64,000 nucleotides of DNA from Bugula neritina (Eukaryota > Animalia > Bryozoa), in assembly GCA_964035545.1 (NCBI GenBank), contig OZ037773.1:3005751-3069750 (forward strand), written 5' to 3'. The position numbers and the translations under genes are program-made. Under the pieces are notes generated by a model. It was given only the letters and a program-made list of their open reading frames with translations, ran no database searches and had not been told where the DNA came from. Positions 10,785-64,000 of this stretch are shown in pieces (the stretch's first letter is position 1; every line of letters begins with the position of its first letter).

Positions 10785-11000
10785 CTCTACTGCACTCTGT
10801 ACCACTGCAACACTAGTTCTTACTCCACTCTACTGCACTCTGTGCCACTACAATACTAGTTCTTACTCCACTCTACTACACTCTGTACCACCACAAAATC
10901 CATCCTATTTCCACCACACTCTGTAACACTACAATACTAGTTCTTACTCTACTACACTCTGTAACACTACAATACCAGTTCCTACTCTACTCTACCGCCA
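10785..11000. repeat. Degenerate 40-43 bp tandem repeat ending at the tropomodulin splice acceptor
   Basis: Recurrent ctctactgcactctgtaccactacaatactagttcttact units. Confidence 0.75.
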
Positions 11001-11011
11001 CTCTTGCAGAT

Positions 11012-14000
11012 ATGACTGGAGCAGAGACAGACATGGATGCTCCATGGGCTAAGAATATGGGTGTCGCTGCGTTTGAGGAGTTTGATATTGACGACCTGTT
11101 GGCTAAGCTGACGCCAGAGGAGATCGAAGAGCTCGCCAACGAAACCGACCCAGACGTGAGTAGCCATGTTTGTTGTGCCGTCGCCCACTTCAGGTTGATT
11201 CCTATAGTAACTTTAAGGTAGATGGGATATTGTATGAGGATAAGTTGAAACAGCAACTTATTCATCAAAGTTCAGCAAAGCTAAGTTATAACTTGTATAA
11301 GTTTTAACTTGTAAACAGGTTGGTTTTACTAGAACTTTCCATATTTTATACACTTTAGCATGGTTAAAATTGCTGTGAGTTTTGTTCCAATTTCAATGTT
11401 GTCAAAACATTGGTGAGATTGTCTTAAATTTCATGTGACTATGAATTTATCAGTGCAGCTATATGCAGAATAGTGTGGTTATAGCCTCCAGCTGTTGGTC
11501 TATCAACTAATTCTCTATCTCTTACAGTTGTCGAGTATTTCAGATGTTGGCAAGACTTTGGCTTCACTTGTTCAGTAATTAGTGTAGAAAAATTCATTTA
11601 ACCATTATTTTGACAGTCAGTCATGAGTTTTTAATGGAAATGTATTTTGGATTCAAGTTCGGATAAGTTAGATGTATCGTTACCATGACAACCTATGGGG
11701 GTGCAGTGAAATGCGTTGGCCTATTGGGCCTAGTAGTGAATGACTGTAGGCAGATTCAACTAACATATAATAGTATAGTCAGCATTTTCAGACAACTTTG
11801 TGCCTTAAGTTTTCCTCCCTTGAGGTGTTGTCAGCTGAACTGATGTTGTATCACTTAGCTGACTTGGCATACACAATCCTATTGAACTGATCAATAATAA
11901 AATATTGATATTTATCTGGCATTGTGTAACTCAGAATGTTATGGCTGAGGCTGTTCCTCAATTTTTGTTTCTGGACTGCAATAAAAAGTTCAAGTCTGTG
12001 AAAGTGAGCTGGTAAGAAAATAAAATCATAGGTAGGGTTTATGTTTTAAAATCAGCGCAAGTTAGTGTTTTAAATAATAGACTGAGTTCTCATATGTTTA
12101 CAGAACTCCTTACTACCACCCGCAGACAGGTGTAAAAATCAGACTACAAAGTCGGACACTGGGCCACTGAACCGAGAGGCTCTGCTAAAGTGGCTGGAAG
12201 ATAAGGCACTCTCCGAGGCAGACTGGGATGAGCCAAAACCCTACACTAAGGTAACTGGAACAGTCTCTCAGTCTATGATCTCATCATGTTGTAAACCCTC
12301 TACTTGAGTTACCTTCTCTTGTCATTTGGGTTTACTGACTTGATAAAGAGCATCTCAATGCAGTGCATAGCATGTCCTTGTTGCCACACCTCACCCAGCT
12401 AATCCCCATAACAGAGTCAATGAACTGCTATTGACTCTGGTAACCTCCGCAAAGGTTAGTTGGTGGGCAGTAAACTCTATGAAGGCATGTAAAGTTATGA
12501 TTCTAACAACTAAAGATGAAGTGTGGACCAATATGGTTTTGGTATTCCAAATGCTGTTCAACTCCTGAGATATTGAACTAAATTTCTAAGAAAAGCCAAG
12601 AGGGCAATGCTTAATGCTAATAACACTCCCCTTCCCAAGATTTCAAAAAATTATAATATATGCATTTTTTAATTACATTTAAAATATTGACTCCCTATTG
12701 AATAATTCAACTTTTACATTGTTATTTAAATACAATGGGCAATATAAAAAGTTTTAATATTTCAAATTACATGCGGAGATTGGAATATTATTTTAGTTGT
12801 AATCCATTACTATTAAATCTAAAACCCTAATGAAAACCAGGCCGTCTGTTTCTATAAAAATTCAACGGTTACAGTGAAACGAAAAACATACCAATAAAAC
12901 AGTATTTCAGTACTTAAAACCCTCACCAACAGAATTGTGGTATATGTAGATAAAGAGAGGGAAGGCGTATGTGCCAAAGGATTCAGATACCAATATTGAT
13001 GACATAAGCGAGAACTCCGGGGAACTGAAAACAGATTTTGATGACATATTAAATAAGGCAACAGAAGAAGAGCTAGTTGATCTAGCAGGTATCTTTTCAT
13101 TATCTTATAGTTTAGTGCCGTCAGCATATAATTTGATGACATCAGCACATATTCTGGTGACATGTGCACATATTCTGGTGACATCAGCACATTTTCTGGT
13201 GACATCAACACATATTTTGGCGACATCAGCACAGTCTGGTGACATGAGCACACATTCTGGTTACAGTAATATATTTAAACCATGAGACATTATTACATAA
13301 TTGGTCGCATGATAGCATTATGACTGACTCAACATTACACATTGTAGCCGCTCTTGGATTTCATGCCATGTTGAATCAGGACCAGTACAATGCCTCAGTT
13401 CTCGAAAAGCCTGTTCATGGAGGGTTTAAGGGTATCGCAAAGGCCACCCTGCCTGCTGTCTCGGAACCTGTTGCTCCGAATAGCACAGATGTTGATAAGA
13501 GTATAGAAAGGCTGACTAGTAACGACGCCTCTCTCACAGAGCTTAATCTCAATAATATTAAGGTTGGTCTTGTTGAAGATCCGTTCTCTCTTGTGATGTC
13601 ATAAGTTGATGCCGCTTGTTAATTGTTTTTATTACGGAAGAAAGCTAAAAGTTAACATTCACTGCTGATTTCTTGTGGTATGACAACTCTCCAAGTGTTG
13701 GAAGAGATTTGATTATGTAACTCGTACGCTTTTTTCTAGAATATTTCTGCACAGAAGTTTGAGAGGTTGTTTTCAGCAGTAGAATCCAACACACACCTGG
13801 TTACCTTAGCCGTGGCCAGTACTGGTATCACAGATAGGGTGGCAAAGGTGAGCAGCTCTTAGGACTATTTTTTCGAAATACCATTTCAAGCTTCTAATAT
13901 CCAGTGATGAATATTTTCTTATTTGCTTTTCATAACAACTTAGGTCAGCTAAACTATATAGAAAGAAGTTCAAGCTGCATCCGTAAACTTGCTTATGATT

Positions 14001-33130: not shown

Positions 33131-33439
33131 TAGTTTACAAAAATTACATTTGAAGACACCAGTGTATTCAGAAAACTGATTCAATTTAACATTTTTATTA
33201 TGACCCTTCTACGTCTAAAGTCTAGACCCTGCTGTCGTAGTGGCAAGTTGAACTTGATACAAACTCAAAGTTTGACTGCACTACTATTAGTATTACTATT
33301 AGTATTACTATTACCAGTAAATGTAATACTATTAGTATTACTATTACTATTAGTATTACTATTACTATTAGTATTAGTATTAGTTATATTAACAGTAATA
33401 GTAATACTAATATTATTAGTCATACATTTACTGTAATAT

Positions 33440-33782
33440 TGTAATGGGATTACGTAGCATAATAATGCATTTGTCTCCTCCTGTTTGGGAATACTTATAA
33501 CCATGTTCTACTATCCAATCAGAAGGACCGGAAGGCAAGGTTCCGGTCAAGTGACTGTTTGCGGGTTAGCTAGCAGAAACCATGTTGTTGAGAGCAGGGG
33601 CTCGTAGTAGCTAGACGTGTTTATAATTGATTGATGTATTGTGGTTTTGACATACTGTTATAATTATGTTTATCGAATTAAATAAAGGTTATCGTACGCA
33701 AGCTCTGTTAGTAGTTGCTAGTTAAATTGAAACTAAATACGCAGGCAATCCACGCTTGATAATTGTGCTAAAACTCACAACA
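33440..33782 (+). repeat. 5' LTR (343 bp)
   Basis: Starts TGTAATGGG, ends CACAACA, contains AATAAA. One visible difference from the 3' LTR (GACTGTTTGCGG vs GACTGTTCGCGG). Confidence 0.97.
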
Positions 33783-33783
33783 G

Positions 33784-33802
33784 TGGTGGCAGCGGTGGGA
33801 TT
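33784..33802 (+). promoter_or_regulatory. Primer-binding site complementary to the tRNA-Leu 3' end
   Basis: TGGTGGCAGCGGTGGGATT is the reverse complement of ...AATCCCACCGCTGCCA-CCA, the eukaryotic tRNA-Leu(AAG/TAG)-type 3' end; it lies 1 nt after the LTR. Confidence 0.9.
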
Positions 33803-33816
33803 TCGCGTATTTCAAG

Positions 33817-34746
33817 ATGACAGAAAGAGGCACAGAGCTACCCCTTCGGAGAAATGAAGGTGAGGAAGATAACATTGCTATACCTATAGAACCAGAAGTG
33901 CGAGTACATAGGGAATGTTACGAAGAGAAGTACCGGCTGAGGGTACCCACCTTCTCAGGTGAAGAGCCGGTGGAGCAATTTGTTCAGGAATTCCAAGATG
34001 TGATGGAGGTTGCACAATGGCCACCTAGAATAGCATTGCTCAAGCTCAGGACGGCGCTGTCAGACAAAGCCAAGCCGTACGGAGTGGGACCAGACATTGA
34101 CGGCATCTTTGCTTCTCTGCGGGCCCGTTTTGGTATCTCCGCTGTAGATGCGCGGGCCCGTCTGCAAAGACTACGGCGTGATCCTCACACGCCGCTACAA
34201 GAGCACGCTACCACGGTTATGAGACTGGCGCAGATTGCATTCCGCGATCTGCCGCCAGTAAACCGTGAGAGGTATACCTATGATGCCTTCGTGCAGTCCA
34301 TCAACGACTTGGGACTCCATCACCAACTCTTGGCGAGGGGAGTCACCACGGTCGAAGGTGCGCTGGCAGAAGGGGAGGTTTACCTTCTGGCCAGCCAGCT
34401 GCACCGGAGCCGTGTGACTTCTCGTCAGGTGGACATGGAGCCCTCCGCTGCTCCTACCGCTTCTCACGCGGAAACTCCAGCGGTGGGCAAGGTGACGCAG
34501 ATGACGGTGGCATCACAGGTCGCACAAATGACCGACATGCTAGCCGAACTGGTCTCCGCCTTGGAAAGCCAGCTAGGCGTAGCCAGTGAGCCTAACGGGC
34601 CACCGGTGCAGTCGCCTAGTAGAGGACACCCCTCCTGCTGGGGGTGCGGAAGACCAGGACACTTCCAGAAGCATTGTCCCCGACTTCAACCAGGGTTAAA
34701 CTACGACGGCCCGCGGATGCTCCCACATCCGGCGGGCCGCCGTTAA
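33817..34746 (+). CDS. gag: Gag (capsid-like region plus CCHC zinc knuckle)
   Basis: 309-aa intact ORF right after the PBS; PTFSGEEPVEQF capsid-like start; CWGCGRPGHFQKHC knuckle. Confidence 0.9.
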   Translation: MTERGTELPLRRNEGEEDNIAIPIEPEVRVHRECYEEKYRLRVPTFSGEEPVEQFVQEFQDVMEVAQWPPRIALLKLRTALSDKAKPYGVGPDIDGIFASLRARFGISAVDARARLQRLRRDPHTPLQEHATTVMRLAQIAFRDLPPVNRERYTYDAFVQSINDLGLHHQLLARGVTTVEGALAEGEVYLLASQLHRSRVTSRQVDMEPSAAPTASHAETPAVGKVTQMTVASQVAQMTDMLAELVSALESQLGVASEPNGPPVQSPSRGHPSCWGCGRPGHFQKHCPRLQPGLNYDGPRMLPHPAGRR

Positions 34747-36103
34747 AACCCCAAGGGAGGACACAGTGGCGTCCGCCACGCCGAACACCCGTCCGGGACC
34801 TCGCGGAACGGCCACCAGGACGGCAAGCAGGCTGTACAAGCCGCTCGCCGCCGGTGTTCTCAATGCCAGGTATCTGCTGGACACGGGCTGCACCACCAAC
34901 CTCCTGGGTCGTCGATTCTTCGACACACTCAGCGCTCAGATCAGAAGCAGGTTGGAACCGTATGAAGGCGATCATGGCACCCTGGCAGATGGGTCGTGCA
35001 TCCCCTTCTACGGTATCATTGAACTCCCTGGGAGCGTCTGTAACCAGACCATCCAGGAAAGGTTCATTGTAGGACAACTCCAGGAGGACGCCATCCTTGG
35101 GATGCCATTCTTACAACGACACGGATGTCGCATTGATTTTGGTAAATCTGCGATGATTATGGGCGGCAGGGAGCTCGCCTGTGTCGATAAGTTTGGCCAT
35201 CCCCTAACGGGAGAAGAGCCGGTAGTACGTACTTGTACTATGCCTGGCCACTCCCGGGGCACCGTCCACCGCAAGGTAGACGGTGGCCGTACCTCCAGGC
35301 CGGGAGCTGTAGAGAGCGCGCACCCGAAAGTCCCACCTGTCCGCAGCTCTAACCAGCTGACACGGAAAGGAAGGACCTCGGTGCCATGCCTCCACTCCCC
35401 CTCTGAACCAGTGAGCCTACCACCCACCTCTCCACCAAGCTGTACTCCTTCTGTTCAAGAAGATAACAGCAGGCCATCACGGGAAACCGCGATGAAAAGT
35501 CCTCTAGAGAAGCCGCCCTACGGGCGAAGGACTGCCTCACCCCACAGCCAGGAGACCCGTGGGAGAACATCAGACGGTTGCGTGGATGACGAACAGCGCC
35601 CAGAGACGGCCACGTCACTACACAAAACCGAGGCTACACCTCACCTTAAGAACCTTGACATGCCCCCAGAAGTGGCACAGGACCCCCACGCCGAACCTGT
35701 CTCAACCGATGGCGTCAAGGAGCTAGGACACCTCCAGGAAATTATTCCGGGGGTGGTAGCCGACGTCTATCGAATGAAACGGGAAGGGCGACGACCCAGT
35801 GACAGACAACGGAAGCAGGGCTGCCCTGAGTGGCAGCTGTACTGCCGACGTTGGAACGCACTGCGGATCGGGCCGGATGGTCTACTGACCATATCTTTGG
35901 CCGATAACCACCACCAGCCAGACCAGGAGAGGACCCTCTGTCCTGCCGCCATCCGCCAAGAGTTGATAGAAGAGGTACACCAACAGGCTCACGGGGAAGC
36001 CCAACAGGTGTTCACCGAACTACAACTCTGGTGGTATTGGCCTCACATGGAGCGTGATGTACGACACAGCGTTGGGCAGTGCGGAGTCTGCCTGGGTCAG
36101 TAA
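34700..36103 (+). CDS. Truncated Pol: aspartic protease fused in frame to the integrase HHCC zinc-binding domain, with no RT or RNase H
   Basis: The frame opens after TAA at 34697-34699. Retropepsin motifs LLDTGCTTNLL and DAILGMPFL; H-x4-H...YWPHM...C-x2-C integrase Zn motif. No YxDD or RNase H motif lies between them. Confidence 0.85.
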   Translation, partial: TTTARGCSHIRRAAVKTPREDTVASATPNTRPGPRGTATRTASRLYKPLAAGVLNARYLLDTGCTTNLLGRRFFDTLSAQIRSRLEPYEGDHGTLADGSCIPFYGIIELPGSVCNQTIQERFIVGQLQEDAILGMPFLQRHGCRIDFGKSAMIMGGRELACVDKFGHPLTGEEPVVRTCTMPGHSRGTVHRKVDGGRTSRPGAVESAHPKVPPVRSSNQLTRKGRTSVPCLHSPSEPVSLPPTSPPSCTPSVQEDNSRPSRETAMKSPLEKPPYGRRTASPHSQETRGRTSDGCVDDEQRPETATSLHKTEATPHLKNLDMPPEVAQDPHAEPVSTDGVKELGHLQEIIPGVVADVYRMKREGRRPSDRQRKQGCPEWQLYCRRWNALRIGPDGLLTISLADNHHQPDQERTLCPAAIRQELIEEVHQQAHGEAQQVFTELQLWWYWPHMERDVRHSVGQCGVCLGQ

Positions 36104-36839
36104 GCACGGCCCCCCTACTGAGGAAGTAGGGCGACGAAGGCAAAGTGCAGAAAGACCCGGGCAGACGGAGACTGCTAACCTGGTCGACAAACCGCCTAGG
36201 ATGCAACCCAAAGCAGTGGCGAGGCAGGAAAAGCCACCCCCGTTCAGGGAAGTGCGCTCACCGCCGTTAGCGTGCAAGCCGCCACCGCCACTTCCTAGGT
36301 CAGGAACCGACCTGGAAGTGCAAAAACCCCCCAAGGGAGGGGCTCCGTGCGGAGGTACTGGGAAAGCTCCATTTGTTACAAATTGGCTGGAAGCACCACC
36401 CAAGAGACGTGACCGTCCACGGGTGCGTAAACCACCATGGCTGGAGATAACACTTCCCCAGGCTCCGAACGGAGATGCTAGGAAAGCTCCATTTGTCACA
36501 AACTGGCTGGAAGCACCACCCAAGAGACTTGACCGTCCACGGGTGCGTAAACCGCCTTGGTTAGTGACGACACCTTGGAAACGGTGTCCTAAGCCAGGCC
36601 CCGCGTATCGCAAGGACTTACCACGTTCCGTTCAGGGCGCGGTCAAACGTCCTACGAGACGCCGTGAGGGGAAGAGAGCAAAGCGTGGGAGTTGTGAGCA
36701 CCACGAAAATATCAACTTTTGTCTCGGCGGAAATTCAAACGAGATTCATACGCCGGAGGTAATAAGTCATAGTCACGTTTCACAACCACGCTGCTCGCTC
36801 TTTCATCACATTAATACAGCTTTGAGTAGACGTACGTAG
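36095..36839 (+). pseudogene. Frameshifted integrase remnant and Pol C-terminal tail with an internal duplication
   Basis: SKHGPPT...GRRR...ERPGQTETANLV resembles the linker into the DDE core (DLV changed to NLV), and the core is absent. About 80-bp direct repeats at 36361-36440 and 36481-36560 encode KAPFVTNWLEAPPKRxDRPRVRKPPWL. Confidence 0.6.
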
Positions 36840-37223
36840 AATTCATAAACATACCACTCTCATTCACAATGGCTTGCCAAGAATCGAGGGGTGAGTTAGT
36901 TATGTTTTTGGTACGAGGGCTAAACTGTATTAATCAGCTTAACTACAATAGAGTAAGCTGGAGACTCGGTAATGATTTTTAGTGGTGAGAATTCACATTG
37001 ACGCTAAGACTTAACAGTCTGTTACAGCAGTGTGTGTTTTTGATCAACTATTCATTAGCTGAGTCTCACGAGTGTCTAATTGAGTTAAGTACCCACCAGG
37101 CTGTATACGCCGGTTGTACTCGGTGTATCCTCTTACACTGTTATACTCTTGCAGATCACACTCGATCGACCAACTCTGGGTCACAGGATCTACACTCTCT
37201 CCTCCTTGGATAACGGACTGGAA

Positions 37224-37895
37224 ATGGACAACGGACTGCCCGCGGTGCTGCGTCGAAGACACAGATGGGTGTCGCGACGAACGGAGCGGCAGATTGAAGA
37301 AGCCTGGGGACCGAGTAGGTCTCAACACACCTGCCACGTGTGTTACGAAGAGCTTCCCTCACACCAAGGACTACGGCTGCATGTGAATGCACACTTCCTG
37401 CTACGGTTCTGTCCGTGTGGATTTCACGACGTGTACCCATACCCCGTCGTGGCTCATATGATGGACTGTTTCGCGGGCGAGGGCTATGTAGTAGACGCGG
37501 ACAACTACGATAAATACCTAGAAGCGGTCAAACCAATGGTTAAGAAGGCTTTAACCTGGGCCGCATTATCCTCCGGATTTTATACATCGCTAACAGCCGC
37601 CCGTCAGAAGTCCCCTATGGTGAAAACGGTCGCCGCAATCATACCGTGGCTAGACAATACCCCTATGGAAGCATCAGACTCCCCAGAAGAGGCGACGCCA
37701 ACTCCACCCAGACCTACCCGACTAGCAACCGTCGAAGAAAGACTCCTACGGCTGCAGGATGAATTCACCCAGTTGGCTCCCGACTTACTCAGCACTTCGG
37801 TGAGCCTTAATGAACTAAAGGGCTCAGTGGGACGCCTTAAGCGTAGACTACGTGCACGGCAAGCACGACACCGGATCCAGTCCCTACAAAAATAG
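37224..37895 (+). CDS. Accessory ORF3 of the LTR element: C2H2 and C2HC zinc fingers, coiled coil, basic tail
   Basis: Stop-free frame from 37149, first ATG at 37224, in-frame acceptor CTCTTGCAG| at 37154. CHVCYEELPSHQGLRLHVNAH; CPCGFHDVYPYPVVAHMMDC; heptad leucines LATVEERLLRLQDEF...LNELKGSVGRLKRRLRAR. Confidence 0.75.
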   Translation: MDNGLPAVLRRRHRWVSRRTERQIEEAWGPSRSQHTCHVCYEELPSHQGLRLHVNAHFLLRFCPCGFHDVYPYPVVAHMMDCFAGEGYVVDADNYDKYLEAVKPMVKKALTWAALSSGFYTSLTAARQKSPMVKTVAAIIPWLDNTPMEASDSPEEATPTPPRPTRLATVEERLLRLQDEFTQLAPDLLSTSVSLNELKGSVGRLKRRLRARQARHRIQSLQK

Positions 37896-38161
37896 GAGCT
37901 GACAGTTGACAATTCCACCCCGCATGTTCCCGGGGTACTACATTGTGATCATGCAAATGCTTGACTGCTAAAGACCTACGATCCAGGACTCTCTCTCTAT
38001 AGCTGGCCAGTTGTACGCTGGCCCTTCATTATCTTACTTACATGTTTATATATGTCGTACATTTGGTATTTCTCTTCTTTCTCTTTGTGGATTTTCTTGA
38101 CTTATGTTATTTTGCATTATTATACTATTTCTGTTTTTATCAGAAAGTATGGCTTTCTGCT

Positions 38162-38172
38162 GGTGGGGGCGG
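38162..38172 (+). promoter_or_regulatory. Polypurine tract
   Basis: GGTGGGGGCGG immediately before the 3' LTR. Confidence 0.75.
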
Positions 38173-38515
38173 TGTAATGGGATTACGTAGCATAATAATG
38201 CATTTGTCTCCTCCTGTTTGGGAATACTTATAACCATGTTCTACTATCCAATCAGAAGGACCGGAAGGCAAGGTTCCGGTCAAGTGACTGTTCGCGGGTT
38301 AGCTAGCAGAAACCATGTTGTTGAGAGCAGGGGCTCGTAGTAGCTAGACGTGTTTATAATTGATTGATGTATTGTGGTTTTGACATACTGTTATAATTAT
38401 GTTTATCGAATTAAATAAAGGTTATCGTACGCAAGCTCTGTTAGTAGTTGCTAGTTAAATTGAAACTAAATACGCAGGCAATCCACGCTTGATAATTGTG
38501 CTAAAACTCACAACA
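38173..38515 (+). repeat. 3' LTR (343 bp)
   Basis: Direct repeat of 33440-33782. Confidence 0.97.
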
Positions 38516-38814
38516 ATATTAATATTAATACAGTAATAAATATAAATTTATAATAATACTGATAGTCTAATAGTAATAGTAATACTAATGTTATTGTAAT
38601 CATTGAGTGATTATGCCAAATTAAAGTAGTATCACTATCAGTATTACTATTAGTATGGCTATCAGTATGAGTATCAGTATGAGTATAACTGTTTTAAAGT
38701 CATAGTACTAAGTCTAATGGTAATACAAGCTCACCACTATTCATAGTGTCGGCTCGCCTGCCATGATTGGTTATTCACTTGCTTTTGCGCACCAATTAAA
38801 TATGGTTATGATAT

Positions 38815-40090
38815 TTAGTAGTAGGTAGGCATCTGTCGGTCGATTTGATCTTGGATTAAACCATATAATTGGGTTGAACAGTGGTGCCTGTGACAATGTA
38901 GATCAATGCGTAAGTGACACTTTTTATTGCAAAGTCACATTTTCATGTAAACTCTAGTCTGTTGGTAGTGGCTTAAGCCTTCTTTCATGCCTTTGTTTTA
39001 GCAGCTGCACTGAAATGTTTTCTTTCCTTAATGCGAGATGGTGTTTTAGTTTGCTCCTACAACTCGCGGGCAGATCCAAAATCTTCCCAGAATGCTGTGT
39101 CTATGGCGACAGGCTTTATATCTCTCTTGCAGACATTTTTGTAGTGTAGGTGAAGTCGCTCACGATTTCGGTTCCTGCTGGTTAGTTTGTCATAGAAGAT
39201 GTCCTTGGGAATGTGTCCTTTGTCCATCCATCGTACATGACCAAGCCAGCGCAGTCTGCATCGTCTCAGAAGGGTAAACACGTTTTGAAGACTAGCTTGA
39301 GAAAAAACCTCTGCATTGGCCACTCAGTTTTGCCATGTGGTCCCCAGGATGTGGCGAATGTTACCCTAATGGAAAGTGTTCAACCTCCTCTCTCCTACCT
39401 GGCATATATGGTAAAAAAAGTGTAGATGTGAAGATTGCAGTCTGCTGTTCAGTTGTCCCTCATTCCCTGAGCACCTTAGTGGTAGCTGTCTAGTGAGATC
39501 TGAAAAGCTTTCCCACCATCAGAAGCAACCCCGGCGCTTTTCTCTACGCCAATTGAGCTACAGATTATGACCGGTATCTTCTGCGCCTTCTGTTATGTCT
39601 ACAAAAAAAGTGAAGCTTTAGTGTCTTTTCCAGTGTGGTGTTGTGCGGGTGTATGCTTGGGCATTGACTATATGAAGGACAGGCTATTACCCATGTAACT
39701 TTTCCCCTCCACGTAGCTGGCATATCTAAAGAAACAGCAGGACTGTTACTGTTTGGCACCAGCGTCCTTGCAGAAGCTGTCGGTGAAAGGTTGTAAACAA
39801 CCACGAAATGTCTTAGGGGCTGCAACTCCGGATTTGTTATTGGCGTTTACTCTCCTAGCCATTCCGTTAGTTGGGTATTGCCATAAGGCAGCAAACGTTT
39901 GAGATCACAGTTTACATTCTCCTAGATGAGCTGTCTTTCCAGACTAATAAGCCCCATCTGCCCAAAGCACTGGTTTTAAGGCACCAGTAACTCACCTTTA
40001 TCCCTTTTGTCAGTAGAAACATGTCCATCGGGCTTATACTTATGCCACATGAACAGGCTAGAAGTTGGACTTTGTTATCAGAGGCTATTT
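38815..40090 (-). mobile_element. Degenerate, internally deleted RTE-clade LINE
   Basis: Minus-strand NAEVFSQASLQNVFTLLRRCRLRWLGHVRWMDKGHIPKDIFY (RTE C-terminal region), terminal C..CNKKCHLRIDLHCHRHHC and a short CTA tail. The stretch 39430-40090 resembles RTE 5' UTRs as recalled. Endonuclease and RT core are missing. Confidence 0.75.
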
Positions 40091-42762
40091 GTGACAGCGA
40101 GAACTTATCCTTACTGCAGCTTTTTCATTGTAACAACCCTTAAAAACTATTTAGTAAACAACAGATATAATTATTACTATCAGTATTGCTATAATAGTAT
40201 TACTATTACTATTAGTATTACTATCAATGTAATGTTACTTTTAATTTTGTTGTATAAAATGTCAGTTGTAGGTCACAGCCCATAGAACTTCTATTAATTC
40301 ATTCCATGATAATTACTTAAAAGTTATTGCTGCTAGCTCTAAGTCAGTATAAGTGTTATAATAATTGTTTTCTCAAATTGAACAAATTAGCTTATAAATG
40401 TAACCTAATAAAATTAAAATAACAATAAACCTGTAAGGTATAAAGCTTAAGCTAATGTTGAAATGGTTAATTGTAGTTTAATATAAATGTAATTATAGCT
40501 TATGTAATGTAGGCTATTTCTGTAGTTTTAATTTACTGGGTTTGAATTATTATAATATTGCATATAATTTATAGTAACATGTGTAGTTAATAACCTGTTT
40601 GTATTTGATACAAACATGTTACATAATATGTATAATTCTAGCCTTTATATAAATACTTGCTTGACTGTTGGCAAAATTTTACTGCACCGGCACAATGAAG
40701 CTATGAACTATTACAATATATATTTTAGTTGTATTTCAAATCTGATGCAATTGTGTGTGTATATTTTTATGAACATTGTTTTAATTTTAGATATTTGAAA
40801 GCTGGCACTGAAACTAGAACAGGACGTTTAACTTTGCTCTGCCTTTTATATTTAAGAATCCCTACCTCACTAACTTTCACCAATCAACTTTGCCATCATT
40901 TTTTCGCCATGGCTTATGATGAACTGTATAGGTCTTACACTTTTGATCTCATGCTGCTCCAGCTGATTTGAGTTCTTTAAAAAATGGACGTATTGTTTCT
41001 TTAGCTTGGGAACTTTTTAAAAGCTAAAGATGCTTTTAAAAAGTTGCCTGATAAGTTTGCTAGCATGTAAACTGCAGGTGATCTTCGTAAATTTCAGAAG
41101 ATCATAAGCGCTTGAATAAAAATGTTAGACGTTCACATGTATGTAATTCGTTAAAAGCATTTTGATGTAGCTCTTGTATATGCTGCACCAGAGCAGCACT
41201 TTCTCTTCACAACACCTTATCCTCTTATATTTCACAATGCTTGTAATTTTGATACAATTATTTTGATATGTTAATAACATAATTAGCAAGTGTGTTCTTG
41301 ACCGTTAATACAGCGCATTGCTTCTAATATTACTCTCTGTGAAAGTTTTCTATTTTAAATATGAATATCAAGTATTTTTAATGCTACAGGTGTAAAACTT
41401 ATCTTGAATAATCAATAAATAAAATTTACCATCCAAAAATTGCTTTATTCATTGGTTTATAGATGTATGTTATGGAGACCAAAGCAGTTAGCTCCATCAC
41501 ATATGTCATCTGAAACAGTACTGTCTTCATAATGTAAATGACTAACACCTGTGTATGTGTATATAACAGGTACATATTTGTATATATGCATGTATATGTA
41601 TACACACAAGCTTATGCATAAGTACATACATACACTGCGTTTCCATGACTGCGCATAATTCGAATGAATGCTTCGTACGGATTATTTGTGGTTTGTGGTT
41701 TGCATTAACTTATAGTTGCGGTTTCATGCGATGTAACTGTTTCCATTAGCCGAATGAAAAAATCCATTCGCATAATGCGATAATGGAAACGCAGTGATAC
41801 AATGCACATAATATATACACTGCGTGTTAAAATTGCAACAGTGAAAAACCTATCAAACCAAACAATTGCGGCCAGTGAGCATATGAAAAAGACCATTGTA
41901 TTAGTTATAAATTAGCCAAACATGTGGTATAAAATAAATTTACTGACAGCATAGTCATGGTGCTGACTACACACTATTTTAATTCATGCGTGTCATCCCA
42001 CTTGGACGCTTCCCACTTAGACGATATTTATAGATTTTAGTGTAATATATGTATTTTATGTTATTATTTAGCACATAATAGAAAGCAAAAAAGCCACCAG
42101 CAGTAACGATGCTTCTATAAAAAGCCATCTTTCGCAAACCTTAAACTTAAAGGTAAAAGATAGACAAAATATAATAAGAAAAAGTTGTAATATACAAGCA
42201 GTATGTGATATACCACAAAATGCATTTGTGTATTTTATTTTGATAATTCTGAATAAAATAAACTGTAGCTAAATTTGTATTGAGTTAAAGCAAATAGCTG
42301 GCTTTGTAGCTTATTTCATGTTTAGCAGTAAATGCAACAGTTATATTTGTATATTACTATATATTGTACCAAAATAAAAAAAATCGTCAAAGTGGGACAA
42401 AACCAATTGATGATGCTGCAGTAAAAATAAATGATAGCAATAAAATTATCAAAGTTTTATAGGGCATTGGTACATGACTCATTATTTAGCAGCTTTCTTG
42501 CAGTAATGTTTGCTAACAGCTGGCAGCTTCCAGAGAATTGACTTCCTTATAGTAATTTTTTTCCGTTTACTGCTGTTTCTTGAGTAAAGTATTGAACAAT
42601 TAGATTTCCTCTGTAGAAAATAGCAATTTCATACTATTTGAATTGGAAGGCTTTATTTTGAAGCTTTATAGTTTCATGTACACATTTGACCAGTGGAAGT
42701 TATGTTAACATTGCGTATAGCATATCTTTCAAGAAAGAGAATATTCCAAATCCACCGGCGTA

Positions 42763-45072: not shown

Positions 45073-48000
45073 ATGAATATTCCAGCTTCATGCATCCTAT
45101 TGGTAATCCTGTGTGAGTATAATATTGATATTTGCTTATATATATAGATGTGTGTGTGCTTGAAGGGTAAAGTTGATATAGAATTCTGATGACGCTATAA
45201 AATTTATTCTTTATACAATATGGCAGAAACAGACAGAATCAGTAAATTTTGGTAGAAATAGAGAATATAATAATTATATCCATCACCATATTGTAAGTAT
45301 TATTATAAGTATAATATATTTAACAGTCAAGGTTCCTTACTCCAACTTGACTGTGTGTTGCACCTGTTATTGATTTAGCTAAGAAAACTATTACAGCGTG
45401 ACAGCTTTTGTAACTCTTGAAGGTGCGCCCCTATTAGAAGCCGTTTCTGTAACAATTCCCCGTTCACGAGGTCCTGTAGATGAGATTGATGTACGCGTGT
45501 TTGGTGAACATACAACCTCCATGATACCAACGTTTGAAAACCATATTGAGAATGAATTTTATTTAATTCCCACTGAAATTTGCTTTGGCTTCTCTTGTGC
45601 TATACAATTTTGTGTTACTTCACCTGTTCGTGTATATTGTACCAAACTCTGCAATCTGGGTAAGTAATAATCCATTTTGATTTGTTGACTGTTTTTCTGC
45701 TAAATAAATAAATTTATTATTATATATTTTTGTTACATATATTTCAATACATTTATTTAGAGCAATATTATACTTAGAATATTATAGTATTATACTCTAG
45801 AGTCTACTATATATAATGCATCAAATTATGGAGTTTTGTCATAGCTACATGGCTGTGCAAGCAGTAAAGGTAAAACTTGCTATAGAACAAAATCTTTGTC
45901 TTACTGCAGTTGTACATGGTGAGTTCTTGGATGCAATTGCTATGGACTCTTTGATAATTATTCTGACCAGACAGAACTCGATTCTTGTCTTAGAGAAACC
46001 AACAGGACTGGTAGATTCTGACAAGCTCTGTACATTTGAACCGTCAAGTTTTTCATTTTTTTCAACAGATAAAAAGTATATTGAAAATGTAAAGGTAAGG
46101 AGGTCATGCAACTATACTAGTTCTATCAAACACTAGAGCTTTCACTGAAATAAGGGAACACATGTGTTATCTCAAAGTTGAAGGCATTAGCATGAGAATA
46201 ATTATATATTAGGAGAAACTATCAGTTGTGCCATAAGCTACATGTCAACATCCAGGTATCCCAACTTATATTATATAGAAGAATATCAATGAATATTATA
46301 TGCATTATGAACCTAACATGTGTACCCATACTTAATAGAAGTGGCAGAGGTTTTTCATACTAAATGAAACAAGAACAGATATTCTAGTTAATTTAAATAA
46401 ATGTAATAGTTACTGAAACTTAACCTAGATATAAATTATTATGCAGCAGACTACAGTTGCCTGTACCTCATTTCAAGATGAACATACTAAAAGTACCTCT
46501 AGTCTAGGTTGTCATACTTATTGTTTCAGATCTTCCCCTACAGCTCAGTAGAGTTCTTTGCAAGTTGGACAGATTCTAAGAAAGACAAGGTAGTAATAGC
46601 TCTGTTGAACACTGAAACCAGTTCTCACACTTACCTGTCTCACAGCTACAACAATGGACCTCTCTCAGCTCTAACTCTGTCAAACTGTGACCAGTACAAT
46701 CTTGTTACCGCAGAGTTTATTTGGAGAACCGAAGAGATTTGTGTTCAGTTCAGCAAACTCAACACGAAACATGATTTTGTTAGTGTTAAGAGATTCTGCT
46801 TACCTGTCCCAGAAAGTGGTGAGAAGTTTAATATATTGCAAATTTCAACTAATTGTTAGCTATACCGTTGTATACACCTGTCAGATCGCAGGGAAGGGAA
46901 ATGATATAGTAGCTAGACATATTATTCTTTCCCTCCTGATTTGTCTAGTGAAAAATGTTTTTATGATTTTGGAATTCCATAGAGCTTCTTCAAATCTAAG
47001 CTACAAGTCTGAGTTCAAAGTTGGGTCAATAGCAAATGCGCAGACATGTTAGGTAAATGTTGGTAAACTCAAGAGACTATTGGTCAAAACTGGGACTAAA
47101 ATTTGTCTACTGCTCAGTCTAAAATAGCCTAGAGACCCATCTATACTAGCTGCCATGAATCCTCATATATATATTAACATTCAAAGTAATATCTGCACTG
47201 CAAGTCACAGGAGTTATGTCATCCTGATACAACTTGGATATGTTGTAGATGTTGAGGGAATCCTCGATCTGTTTGTGAGCTGTAACTACATACTCTATCT
47301 TATTGTGACCAATACAAGGCTAAGCAATGTCCTTTACAAATGGGAGTGGCCAACCATAACAGACTTCACTGAAGAGCTCAAAGTAACCAATGCCAACCCT
47401 CCACTGGTAGGAAGTAAGAGTAAACTACTCTTCTACAATAACAAAGGAAACATCCTGTTAGTGGATTTGGGTAAGTGGGTTTATATTTCCACTCAATATA
47501 CATAAGGTTCTCAATATATTATATTATATTCTATATGCATGGTTGTTGTTGTGTTGCATGTAAGCTGTAATTAATCTCTTCATAGCCCACATTTCTAGAT
47601 TATAATGAATGTAGATTGTCTCCCTTGCAGAAAAGACTTCAAAAGGTCAAGACCCAGACACTTCTGCTGACAACAGCCCAACATTTTCAATTTCTGACTT
47701 CCCTGCTGTTCTCCAGACATTTCCTAGTATAGCTGACACTGCAACCAGTCCGGCAGCGTATCCCGACAGCTTGGCAGCATCAGAGGCAGCACCAGAGGCT
47801 GTACCACAGGCAGTGCCACAGGCATCATCAGAGCTAACACAACCAGGCACATGCTCTAAACGTGCTGGGAACTTTCCCAATGCAGTAAACCAAATGCAGA
47901 TGAAGAGGTATAGGTTCAAAATCTCCTCATTCTGTAGACATAGATACCATCGGTATAGAGAAGCTGCCAGACTTCAGCTGGCTCCAGGAGAATCTACCCG

Positions 48001-48175
48001 TGAATGTGCTGTAGAGTGTGCTTTTGCTCACCAACAAACCCAGTGTGTAGGATTTGTCTTCAATTTGGCTCAAGGCAGCTGTAGCTTGCTTACATGGGCT
48101 GAATCTAAAAATTCCTTTTCATATCATGATTATCGTGATGAAAATTATGTTTGTTATGAAAGGATTGACAACTAA
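45073..48175 (+). CDS. Secreted protein with a Ser/Thr/Pro/Ala-rich linker and a C-terminal PAN/apple-like domain
   Basis: Phase-consistent exons 45073-45112, 45405-45659, 45910-46094, 46530-46819, 47249-47470, 47631-48175. Signal peptide MNIPASCILLVILSFVTLEG; PAN-like STRECAVECAF...CVGFVFNLAQGSCSLL. Confidence 0.7.
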
Positions 48176-61692: not shown

Positions 61693-64000
61693 TTTAAAAT
61701 GAACTACTCGATGGCTGTTGTGGTGAAGCTGAAAAATGCTGACATAGAAGATGTAATGGAAAGACTTTGTTTTGCTTGTCCAGGTAAATCATTTGTACAA
61801 AATTAAAAGTCTATTATGATAACAGATGATCTAAAAATAAATTGCATATCTTAAGGCTTAGTGGTAATATAATATACTTTGAGCACAAATTTAAATGATT
61901 AAAAAGCCCTGCATTGCTTACCTAGTATATTATCTCTTTACACATATTAGAAAAAGAAGTCATCATAATTTTTTTACTACAGAACATAGTCAAATTATTA
62001 CATTTACTTTTACATGAATAATCAGTTTCTCAGTTTTTTTCTTTATCTTCATGAACAAGCATTAACTTTGAAGACCTAAAAATAATGCACACAATTTTGA
62101 GGTATTTTTCTTCTTAAGTGTTTAAAATGTTTGACAGTTGGAAGAATATTTGGACATGATGTCAGTATGTTTCCTAGTTTTTCATATGGTTGAACTTGAT
62201 TTTTGTCATTCTCCTATACTCCTCAAGTGTGGAGTCCTGAATGTACACTTTTACTACGCTATTGTTCAGGGTTGTTTTAATTTTACTCTGTTACTTTACT
62301 ATATTTTAATCAACAAACCCCTAATTTATATTGATGGTATTTATGGTTATATTTTAGTCAAGCTGACCTAACACTTGTTCAGTTCAGGCTCATCAATGTA
62401 TGTTTGGTTTAGAAAATTAAACTGCAATGTGAAGTATTCAGACTAGTTACTTAACTAAAAAATGCACTAAATGCAAGGAAATATTATGTTAATATTTGTT
62501 ACCATAGTTCATTTCAAACTCATACATGTGATCAACAAAATACTTCATTTTGTTTTGCAGTGTAATCAAGATGAAATTATGAATGATGAAATTATGGATG
62601 GCAGCCAATTTATTTTGACTATCAGACAAGGACTACAGTTTTTATGGTAATTTCAATTTTTGAATATATCTCTTATATTATACATAAAATGTTCACCTTC
62701 TGCTTTAATTTGCAGCCAGGTTTTACTCATGGCTGCTGTATTCAAGTCACCTCATCACACAGCCAATCTACAAGACTGTCATAAAAGTTGCTATTATATT
62801 TTTTCACCAATTAATTAAAAGAAATAGAACTTCGGCTTCACAAGTGGTGTCACTCTCATACTCATTGTTTTACTTAATTTTGCCATCCTCCTATTCTTCA
62901 CTGTATTCTTTTAGGTCGCAGTGTTCTGCACTAATCTATGATCTCTTTTGATTTTTAACCCCCATGTTTAAATGTTTTGGTCTTGCTCCCTTTTTCTGGA
63001 GTTTCACACTGATGTAGCTGATTCCCTTCTTGTTTTATTGTTCTCTGCTGCATAGGTGCCCATATTATTCCAGCCTTCTCTTTCCCACAAATATAGTTAC
63101 TGCATTTACTGCCGCCCTGTCTCAGATCCCTTCATTTCTGGGAACGAAGCAATATTCCGAAGGCCCATTGCTCCGAAGGTCCATTAGTCCGAAAATTAGT
63201 ACACACAGGCATCCTCACTGAGAATATCATTAATATCACTCACAATTCAGTTTAAGTTCTTGCTATATTATTGATCTGTGGGTGGCATGCGTGTTGCCTA
63301 TTTGTGATTGTTTAGCCTGAGATTACACTATGATCAATAAGGGCTGTATCGTTTATCAACATTCCATTATGGCTGCTCCATAAACAAAGTACACACCAAG
63401 CTATTCATTAGCCTGTCACCTCGCAAGCCTGTAATTAATAATGTACCGTACGCATAATCATGTTGATAGATGATGTAGCAAGTAGGCAACACACATGCCA
63501 CCCACAGAGCAATAACATAGCTAGAACTTAAACTGAATTGTGAGTGAAATTAATGATATTCTCATTGAGGATGCCTGTGTGTACTAATTTTCGGACTAAT
63601 GGACCTTCGGAGCAGTGGGCATTCAGAATATTGACTAGTTACCCTCATTGCTTATGTAGCACAACTCATCTCCATGAAACCTAATTGATCCTCTAGGTAC
63701 TAAGAACTAGGGGCTGTCTGCAGTCATAATTTATTGCCAAAAGACATTGTCAGTCAAATGCACATTTTATATCAGCATTTTCAATTTTGTTGGCGTCTTC
63801 TTGATGGAGCCTTACCCTATTTCTTTTTCTACCCCTGTTTTGCATACTCTGTTGCTATGTGTCACTTCAATGAAACCATCGCCTCAACTTATTTAGTTTG
63901 ACTGTTGAAATATATTTTGCTTTTACAGGTCTAAAAGAAAGTGGCCATTTGAGTTTAAGTGCAGCTTCACTATTGACAAGAACATCTACGTTAGAGAAGA
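61693..64000 (+). CDS. Partial multi-exon gene of unknown product (continues off the right edge; upstream exons near 60.1-60.8 kb unresolved)
   Basis: Four phase-consistent AG/GT exons 61693-61783, 62138-62160, 62561-62646, 63929-64000 give FKMNYSMAVVVKLKNADIEDVMERLCFACPVGRIFGHDCNQDEIMNDEIMDGSQFILTIRQGLQFLWSKRKWPFEFKCSFTIDKNIYVRE. Confidence 0.5.
63140..63643. mobile_element. MITE with about 165-bp terminal inverted repeats
   Basis: 63152-63304 is the near-exact reverse complement of 63478-63630. GGG...CCC ends; candidate 8-bp TSD TCATTTCT / TCATTGCT. Confidence 0.85.

Follow-up and report, generated by a model that had tools for sequence, protein, structure and literature searches.

Retroviral regulators made from spliced RNA act on transcription, as Tax and foamy-virus Tas do, or on RNA export, as Rex does. 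Tat (transcription) and Rev (export) have corresponding roles (PMC7264820, PMC10309623). For LTR retrotransposons, the Gypsy element Cer1 of C. elegans encodes CERV, a spliced, GAG-sharing nuclear protein that is needed for the export of unspliced RNA and for which the published account reports no homologue outside nematodes (PMC10309623). Among the animal LTR-retrotransposon regulators in the literature that we found, only CERV has a function that was put to the test. In reviews, 3' ORFs in sense orientation are described as env-like and those in antisense orientation as candidates for a regulatory role (PMC7264820, PMC8220671), and the bryozoan errantiviruses described in PMC13524379 have the order GAG-ENV-POL with a gB-type ENV. 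In its main text, the metazoan errantivirus survey mentions neither zinc nor splicing. Here, we describe an accessory gene carried by a Gypsy-type element within a stretch of 64,000 nucleotides from the bryozoan Bugula neritina (contig OZ037773.1, positions 3,005,751 to 3,069,750), which we refer to as the window.

The Gypsy-type LTR element spans 33440-38515 of the window and was inserted recently, its LTRs differing at 1 of 343 bases. Its structural features are as follows.

33436..33439, plus strand: left target-site duplication of 4 bp (repeat copy at 38516-38519)
33440..33782, plus strand: 5' LTR of 343 bp, TG...CA, with one mismatch to the 3' LTR
33784..33801, plus strand: primer-binding site of the tRNA-Leu type, presumably 18 bases in extent
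33817..34746, plus strand: gag, open, with one CCHC knuckle (zf-CCHC E 0.079, weak)
34700..36103, plus strand: pol remnant, a protease-like part (Asp_protease_2 E 0.19) followed by an integrase H2C2 domain (Integrase_H2C2 E 3.5e-9)
38162..38172, plus strand: G-rich polypurine-tract-like stretch ahead of the 3' LTR, from sequence
38173..38515, plus strand: 3' LTR, from the LTR comparison

The element thus shows the LTRs bounded by TG...CA, primer-binding site, polypurine tract, target-site duplication and gag of a Ty3/Gypsy LTR retrotransposon. The first 12 bases of its primer-binding site stand as a Leu primer-binding site in the supplements of PMC13524379. Reverse transcriptase (RT) and RNase H are missing from the pol remnant, and a Pfam search detected no RT, RNase H or integrase core in the element. 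The sites of the missing pol domains are crossed with few differences by contigs of three public runs (e.g., X2 at 35330-35680, X3 at 35203-35718 and 35981-36498). In run X1, element-internal contigs had depths of 650-1240 compared to 55 for the flank, a hint that this stripped form is multi-copy. A 289-codon open frame 3' of the integrase remnant (35970-36839) contains two 113-bp direct repeats at 36341-36573, which are 87% identical and 120 apart. Parts of this frame are joined to the accessory gene in the proteins P0080 and P0152, which are probably deletion derivatives. Both LTRs carry, in the same place, a CCAAT box and, downstream of it, an inverted repeat whose 8-bp arms are separated by 7 bases (33516-33548 in the 5' LTR, with arms at 33526-33533 and 33541-33548). 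Each arm resembles an ETS site, and the repeat is a candidate site for a dimeric factor of either the host or the element.

Elsewhere in the window, host exons encode a tropomodulin-like segment (10817-11221, E 0.0003) and a PAN domain (47615-48175, E 8e-5). A decayed fragment on the minus strand at 38900-39950, in which Pfam found nothing for an 88-aa piece, reads like the end of a LINE reverse transcriptase. A MITE-like inverted repeat occupies 63140-63643, with 165-bp arms that are 92% complementary and 174 apart.

The region that separates the pol remnant from the 3' LTR contains a stop-to-stop frame of 268 codons (37089-37895), whose first ATG at 37224 opens a product of 223 aa.

37190..37200, plus strand: frame break of the window copy relative to the family, from contig gaps and the frame of relatives
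37224..37895, plus strand: open 223-codon core of the accessory gene, from the ORF list and relatives
37266..37496, plus strand: conserved domain, from alignment and model
37719..37892, plus strand: Arg-rich tail (aa 206-223), preceded by a coiled coil predicted at aa 166-205, from alignment and model

A preliminary description of this DNA had reported an intact ORF of 223-248 codons between pol and the 3' LTR. The place and the open 223-codon core are upheld by our analysis, while intactness and the 248-codon reading have to be given up because of the frame break. Of the 25 close relatives whose protein extends to the splice acceptor upstream of the core, 24 use the phase-1 frame for the post-acceptor bases, and not one uses the frame of the window. 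In the window copy, the phase-1 frame stops at 37211-37213. Contigs covering 37190-37200 mostly differ from the window by a gap, which was found at all depth in X1, at most of the depth in X2 and X3, and at nearly all contig depth in four RNA-like runs. The frame break may stem from a recent mutation or from an assembly error. Judging from the relatives, the family does not use the 248-codon reading that starts at the acceptor. The window copy could at most yield the 223-aa core, if translation re-initiates at 37224, and might yield no product; the 223-aa product would hold every conserved part.

How the gene might be expressed is indicated by the following sites and by contigs of public runs.

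33817..33859, plus strand: coding segment of exon 1 (43 nt), made up of the first 14 gag codons and one further base, with the donor AAG/GTGAGG in phase 1
33860..37154, plus strand: intron comprising the whole of gag-pol (joint 33859/37155), in which several windows fold better than shuffles
36050..36200, plus strand: long RNA stem-loop, predicted where the pol remnant ends (z -6.2), a candidate cis element
36869..36890, plus strand: short ATG exon of 22 nt with a donor-like site, phase 1; a possible alternative first exon whose use was not seen
37115..37154, plus strand: pyrimidine tract and splice acceptor CAG/ATC, from sequence and contig joints

The preliminary description had called for junction reads at 37155, and contigs of this kind exist in three of four probable RNA runs (X8 and X6 of study P3, X11 of study P4): they begin on the window at 37153. 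Their loose 5' end equals gag 33828-33857 at 25 of 30 bases, with 18 at the next best place in the window, and the matched gag stretch ends directly before AG/GT. The RNA type of the four runs is a guess, and all evidence for the joint comes from contigs; X5 gave no joint-type match among those listed. A search of runs recorded as RNA listed none that contains the stretch, an outcome that speaks neither for nor against transcription. As the joint-bearing contigs are ~86% identical to the window, they belong to a sister subfamily and not to the window locus. The database protein P0002, which stems from a 5320-base contig of either DNA or RNA, matches the gag start at 10 of its 14 N-terminal residues and continues with the post-acceptor sequence in the family frame. 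These sequences suggest that the sister subfamily likely joins the gag start to the accessory gene by splicing out gag-pol. Alternatively, the gag-37155 joint could represent a reverse-transcribed spliced copy standing in DNA.

The donor-like site 36890/GTGAGT and the acceptor 37154/37155 stand where they had been placed before. Of the three options offered for the accessory RNA, the gag-37155 joint of the sister subfamily agrees with a subgenomic RNA spliced from the 5' region. The short ATG exon and the acceptor had been considered out of phase, which does not hold: the 22-nt ATG exon and the 43-nt gag exon are both of phase 1, as is the frame of 24 of the 25 relatives, so that no microexon is needed and we dropped this requirement. 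Nor did we find support for the internal ATG exon in the part of a required first exon: no joint using the internal donor at 36890 occurred among the 15 of 18 joints listed. A second acceptor-like site (pyrimidine tract and CAG/) is located at 36785-36819, 49 bases upstream of the internal ATG, and could together with the donor at 36890 delimit a 71-base cassette exon.

The accessory protein contains a family domain of ~100 residues, which we defined from 92 sequences with identities down to ~20%. It is formed by a Trp-x-Ser/Thr helix, finger 1 (C-x2-C-x12-H-x3-H), a linker of five residues, finger 2 (C-x-C-x12-H-x3-C), a Val-Asp motif and further helices. In the window protein, these are the Trp-helix at aa 15-28, the C2H2 finger at aa 37-57, the CxC-x12-H-x3-C finger at aa 63-82 and the V-D motif at aa 90-91, after which helices continue to aa 129. 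The C2H2 finger and the second, C2HC-type finger were already recognized in the preliminary description; their ligand columns are kept in 86-92 of the 92 aligned relatives, except for the last Cys of finger 2 (69 of 92). A classical C2H2 array with the standard linker was not found: the inter-finger linker is short and hydrophobic, finger 2 is of the CxC-type and its last ligand is mostly Cys. A domain model obtained from the 92-sequence alignment reached a pLDDT of 93 and a pTM of 0.86, and predicts the fingers and their flanking helices as one compact domain without a whole-domain match in the chains compared. A first model, built on close relatives, had a pLDDT of 59 and was left out of the fold search. 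The C-terminal coil and Arg-rich tail reported earlier are likewise present, the former as a long helix predicted at pLDDT 70-91.

Database searches did not assign the domain to a described family. Pfam returned no family at cut-off for the ORF and, over the 92 aligned members, generic C2H2 matches in 3 rows only. An Atlas search retrieved unnamed clusters and generic C2H2 entries only, Foldseek gave no match at E 0.001 against the PDB and viral models, and VIA-align found nothing at Z of at least 5 (top Z 4.2) among 48,161 chains. Local structural likeness was restricted to DNA-bound tandem C2H2 pairs and to the two-finger part, with the low, generic scores of Kaiso (Z 3.8, rmsd 3.4, 58 aa) and SALL4 (Z 3.7, rmsd 2.6, 50 aa); finger 1 scores alongside C2H2 transcription factors. 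A match to a well-described Gypsy accessory family, which had been named as a possible outcome, was thus looked for and not found in Pfam, fold or literature searches. The literature search yielded no description of the accessory gene; Repbase, Dfam, GyDB, subscription journals and bioRxiv supplements were outside of it and may hold one.

A word-indexed search identified 119 relatives of the 3' frame at 49-90% identity, and a profile search 127 representatives. In a 54-sequence alignment of the window and 53 of the 119 relatives, mean identity to the window was 64% for finger 1, 74% for finger 2, 75% for the coil and 81% for the basic tail, compared to 32% for the linker. This pattern supports the earlier suggestion that retention of the gene reflects selection. 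Of the differences listed, 8 of 12 are synonymous in the accessory ORF and 7 of 12 in gag, counts that come from the best 40 of 710 and the best 40 of 834 differences over the stretch and do not represent a dN/dS. At the sequence level, the accessory gene appears to be conserved like a selected gene.

With the domain profile, we found 251 complete domains among 382 proteins, falling into 48 groups of which two are large (86 and 79 domains). The helix faces of finger 1 are conserved and basic in the 67 distant rows, with Arg or Lys at +2 in 56 and Arg at +3 in 47, and finger 2 presents Arg at +1 in 47 and Asp at +2 in 51. In the window subfamily, which sits on a long branch (1.71) of the domain tree, Tyr-Pro-Tyr-Pro replaces this Arg-Asp face. 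A heptad repeat above shuffles was seen in 21 of 34 distant relatives with a tail of at least 70 residues. Of 41 distant relatives picked by hand, 34 have an N-terminal part with a net acidic composition, and an acidic Leu/aromatic window, by thresholds of our own choice, occurs in the N-terminal part of 20 of the 41 compared to 3 of 30 C-terminal parts. The N-terminus of the window subfamily is short and mildly acidic; midway along the post-acceptor stretch, the net charge is about -3.

All relatives with a species name, among 20 distant proteins looked up, are bryozoan (Bugula neritina and Watersipora subatra). Truncated sequences are frequent among the database relatives, as is expected of dead copies and short contigs. 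Whether homologues occur only inside elements or derive from a host gene had been posed as a question, and both forms were found: the gag-fused element form, and host-like bryozoan genes (P0254, P0255, P0185, P0240, P0179) that carry the domain once or twice. An extra N-terminal region common to one Watersipora and one Bugula protein suggests true host genes. The locus numbers of the two Bugula host-like genes follow each other directly and their scaffold lengths are equal, which points to a tandem pair. The host-like proteins are scattered in the domain tree, which is unrooted, largely unresolved and built from 60 rows of the 251 domains. A weak search among 7980 candidates gave no fused forms of 971-2770 aa. 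No locus with the gene was found in viral contigs, nor in metagenome contigs with the alignment as query; two metagenome loci were discarded as chance matches in wrong frames of bacterial genes.

We consider a nuclear regulator the best reading of the accessory protein. More specifically, and with a probability of roughly 0.45, we propose a nuclear zinc-finger/coiled-coil transactivator of the LTR that is made by gag splicing, binds element DNA and raises transcription. An acidic region, fingers, a basic patch and a coiled coil are the layout of a transcription activator. This proposal is favoured by the gag joint, the domain-wise conservation, the acidic N-termini and heptad repeats of distant relatives, their conserved basic helix faces and the local likeness to DNA-bound tandem C2H2 pairs. 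Following this layout, the basic tracts would direct the protein to the nucleus, the coiled coil would mediate self-association, the tandem fingers might contact DNA and the acidic N-terminus could provide activation. Positive feedback may result, in that the fully spliced early RNA would make the switch for the unspliced RNA. We further propose that a non-autonomous copy keeps the gene because the gene raises its own RNA supply, while RT and integrase are borrowed. Several observations count against a transactivator. The activator-like features reside mostly in distant relatives, which we know from their protein sequences. The structural Z-scores are low and generic, and the atypical linker and, in the window subfamily, the Tyr-Pro-Tyr-Pro of finger 2, the long branch and the short N-terminus point in the same direction. 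Moreover, a site shared by LTR and spacer, as in foamy viruses, was not found: the LTR and the spacer at 36600-37154 have no exact word of at least 10 bases in common.

It is rather unlikely, though it comes next in order, that the protein acts in the manner of Rev or CERV, as a product of spliced RNA that binds structured intron RNA so that unspliced RNA exits the nucleus or escapes splicing. The intron comprises all of gag-pol with consensus sites, and unspliced RNA would therefore need protection; the protein offers two Arg-rich tracts. In run X11, the joint-bearing contig had a depth of 444 compared to 14-36 for gag-pol contigs, which we regard as a weak hint. CERV likewise derives from an RNA that is spliced and has the N-terminus of GAG in common, and its description includes a Cys finger and a leucine zipper (PMC10309623). 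RNA folding speaks in part for this mode of action, as windows that are more stable than shuffles are commoner in the intron than in the exons: 6 of 21 intron windows and 1 of 11 exon windows fall below z -2, with an intron mean z of -1.44 (p 0.03). In addition to the stem-loop at the end of the pol remnant, a further one is predicted at 36660-36820 (z -3.7), both having been chosen after a scan of 66 windows. However, the folding excess of the intron is equally strong on the minus strand, its G+C is higher, and p rises to 0.08 when only ORF windows are compared; 2 of 14 host windows pass the folding threshold as well. The host window 41000-41150 folds far better than shuffles (z -5.3) and is probably an inverted repeat. 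Furthermore, the only match resembling a nuclear export signal falls within finger 1, the acidic N-termini suit activation better than export, and many env-splicing elements are not known to rely on a Rev-like protein.

Still less probable than direct activation or export is a nuclear role in anti-silencing or chromatin tethering, or a role as a decoy that engages host zinc-finger proteins with the same domain. A decoy would be in line with the host-like bryozoan genes bearing this domain, and with a window subfamily that lost its finger-2 recognition residues yet retained a coil of 75% identity. For anti-silencing, domain searches found no chromatin-reader or enzyme domain, and nothing ties the protein to the silencing machinery. 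We consider it quite improbable that the gene is a captured host-gene fragment travelling as a passenger without benefit to the element. The existence of host-like genes with the domain, the broken window copy and the many truncated relatives would fit such a passenger, but domain-wise conservation over 50-85% divergence, the in-phase gag joint and the two large domain groups argue against it. An env function was rejected, in agreement with the preliminary description, because the protein has no signal peptide or membrane segment (the top 19-residue Kyte-Doolittle mean is 0.77).

The family presents a second and apparently unrelated solution next to CERV, with a mapped splice joint and a confidently modelled domain that is unnamed in libraries. 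It also brings hundreds of natural variants together with host genes carrying the same domain. It makes testable whether retrotransposons without env bring along a transcriptional or export switch of their own, and whether this switch is what selection preserves in non-autonomous families. A broader proposal, which we regard as possible but doubtful, is that the unnamed double-zinc-finger domain marks a widespread 'complex' class of env-less Gypsy elements in bryozoans and perhaps other marine animals. Such elements would encode their own gag-spliced transcription factor, a counterpart of Tas and Tax, which non-autonomous families would have kept after the loss of RT and integrase, and which would have been swapped between elements and host genes more than once.

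Compared to known systems, the protein resembles SALL4 and Kaiso/ZBTB33 in the spacing of finger 1 and in the superposition of its two-finger part over ~50 residues, and differs from them by the CxC-x12-H-x3-C finger 2, the short hydrophobic linker and the compact, helix-flanked domain. As described in PMC7264820, gene23 of the plant element Grande is another accessory gene at the 3' side, whose product is nuclear and has been proposed to be regulatory; it is antisense with its own promoter, whereas the gene presented here is sense and, probably by splicing, fused to gag. With env of Gypsy elements and errantiviruses it shares the sense strand, the position between pol and the 3' LTR and the expression by splicing, as far as these sources describe them (PMC13524379, PMC7264820, PMC8220671), but not the signal peptide or membrane segment. 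Tat, Tax and Tas, as well as Rev and Rex, are likewise small nuclear regulators made from spliced RNA of a gene 3' of pol. No sequence or fold likeness to them was found, the element here is without env and has lost RT, and the common response element of LTR and internal promoter that characterizes a foamy Tas-type circuit was not detected by the exact-word comparison. Our results thus agree with the preliminary description in that the gene is element-borne, not env and spliced, while its closest precedent, CERV of Cer1, had been missed. Both are accessory proteins that LTR elements produce from spliced RNA with the N-terminus of GAG, here in the sister subfamily, and the published description of CERV also includes a Cys-rich finger, a leucine zipper and a basic nuclear signal (PMC10309623). 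According to the same description, CERV has 517 aa, five exons, H, M and G-protein-like domains and a possible C4 loop, which sets it apart from a protein of 223-261 aa with one intron, an exon 3' of pol, His-ligated C2H2 and CxC-H-C fingers, a C-terminal coil and no room for a G domain. Taken together, the family and CERV, as far as the latter is described, are alike in their expression logic and differ in size, finger type, domains and gene position.
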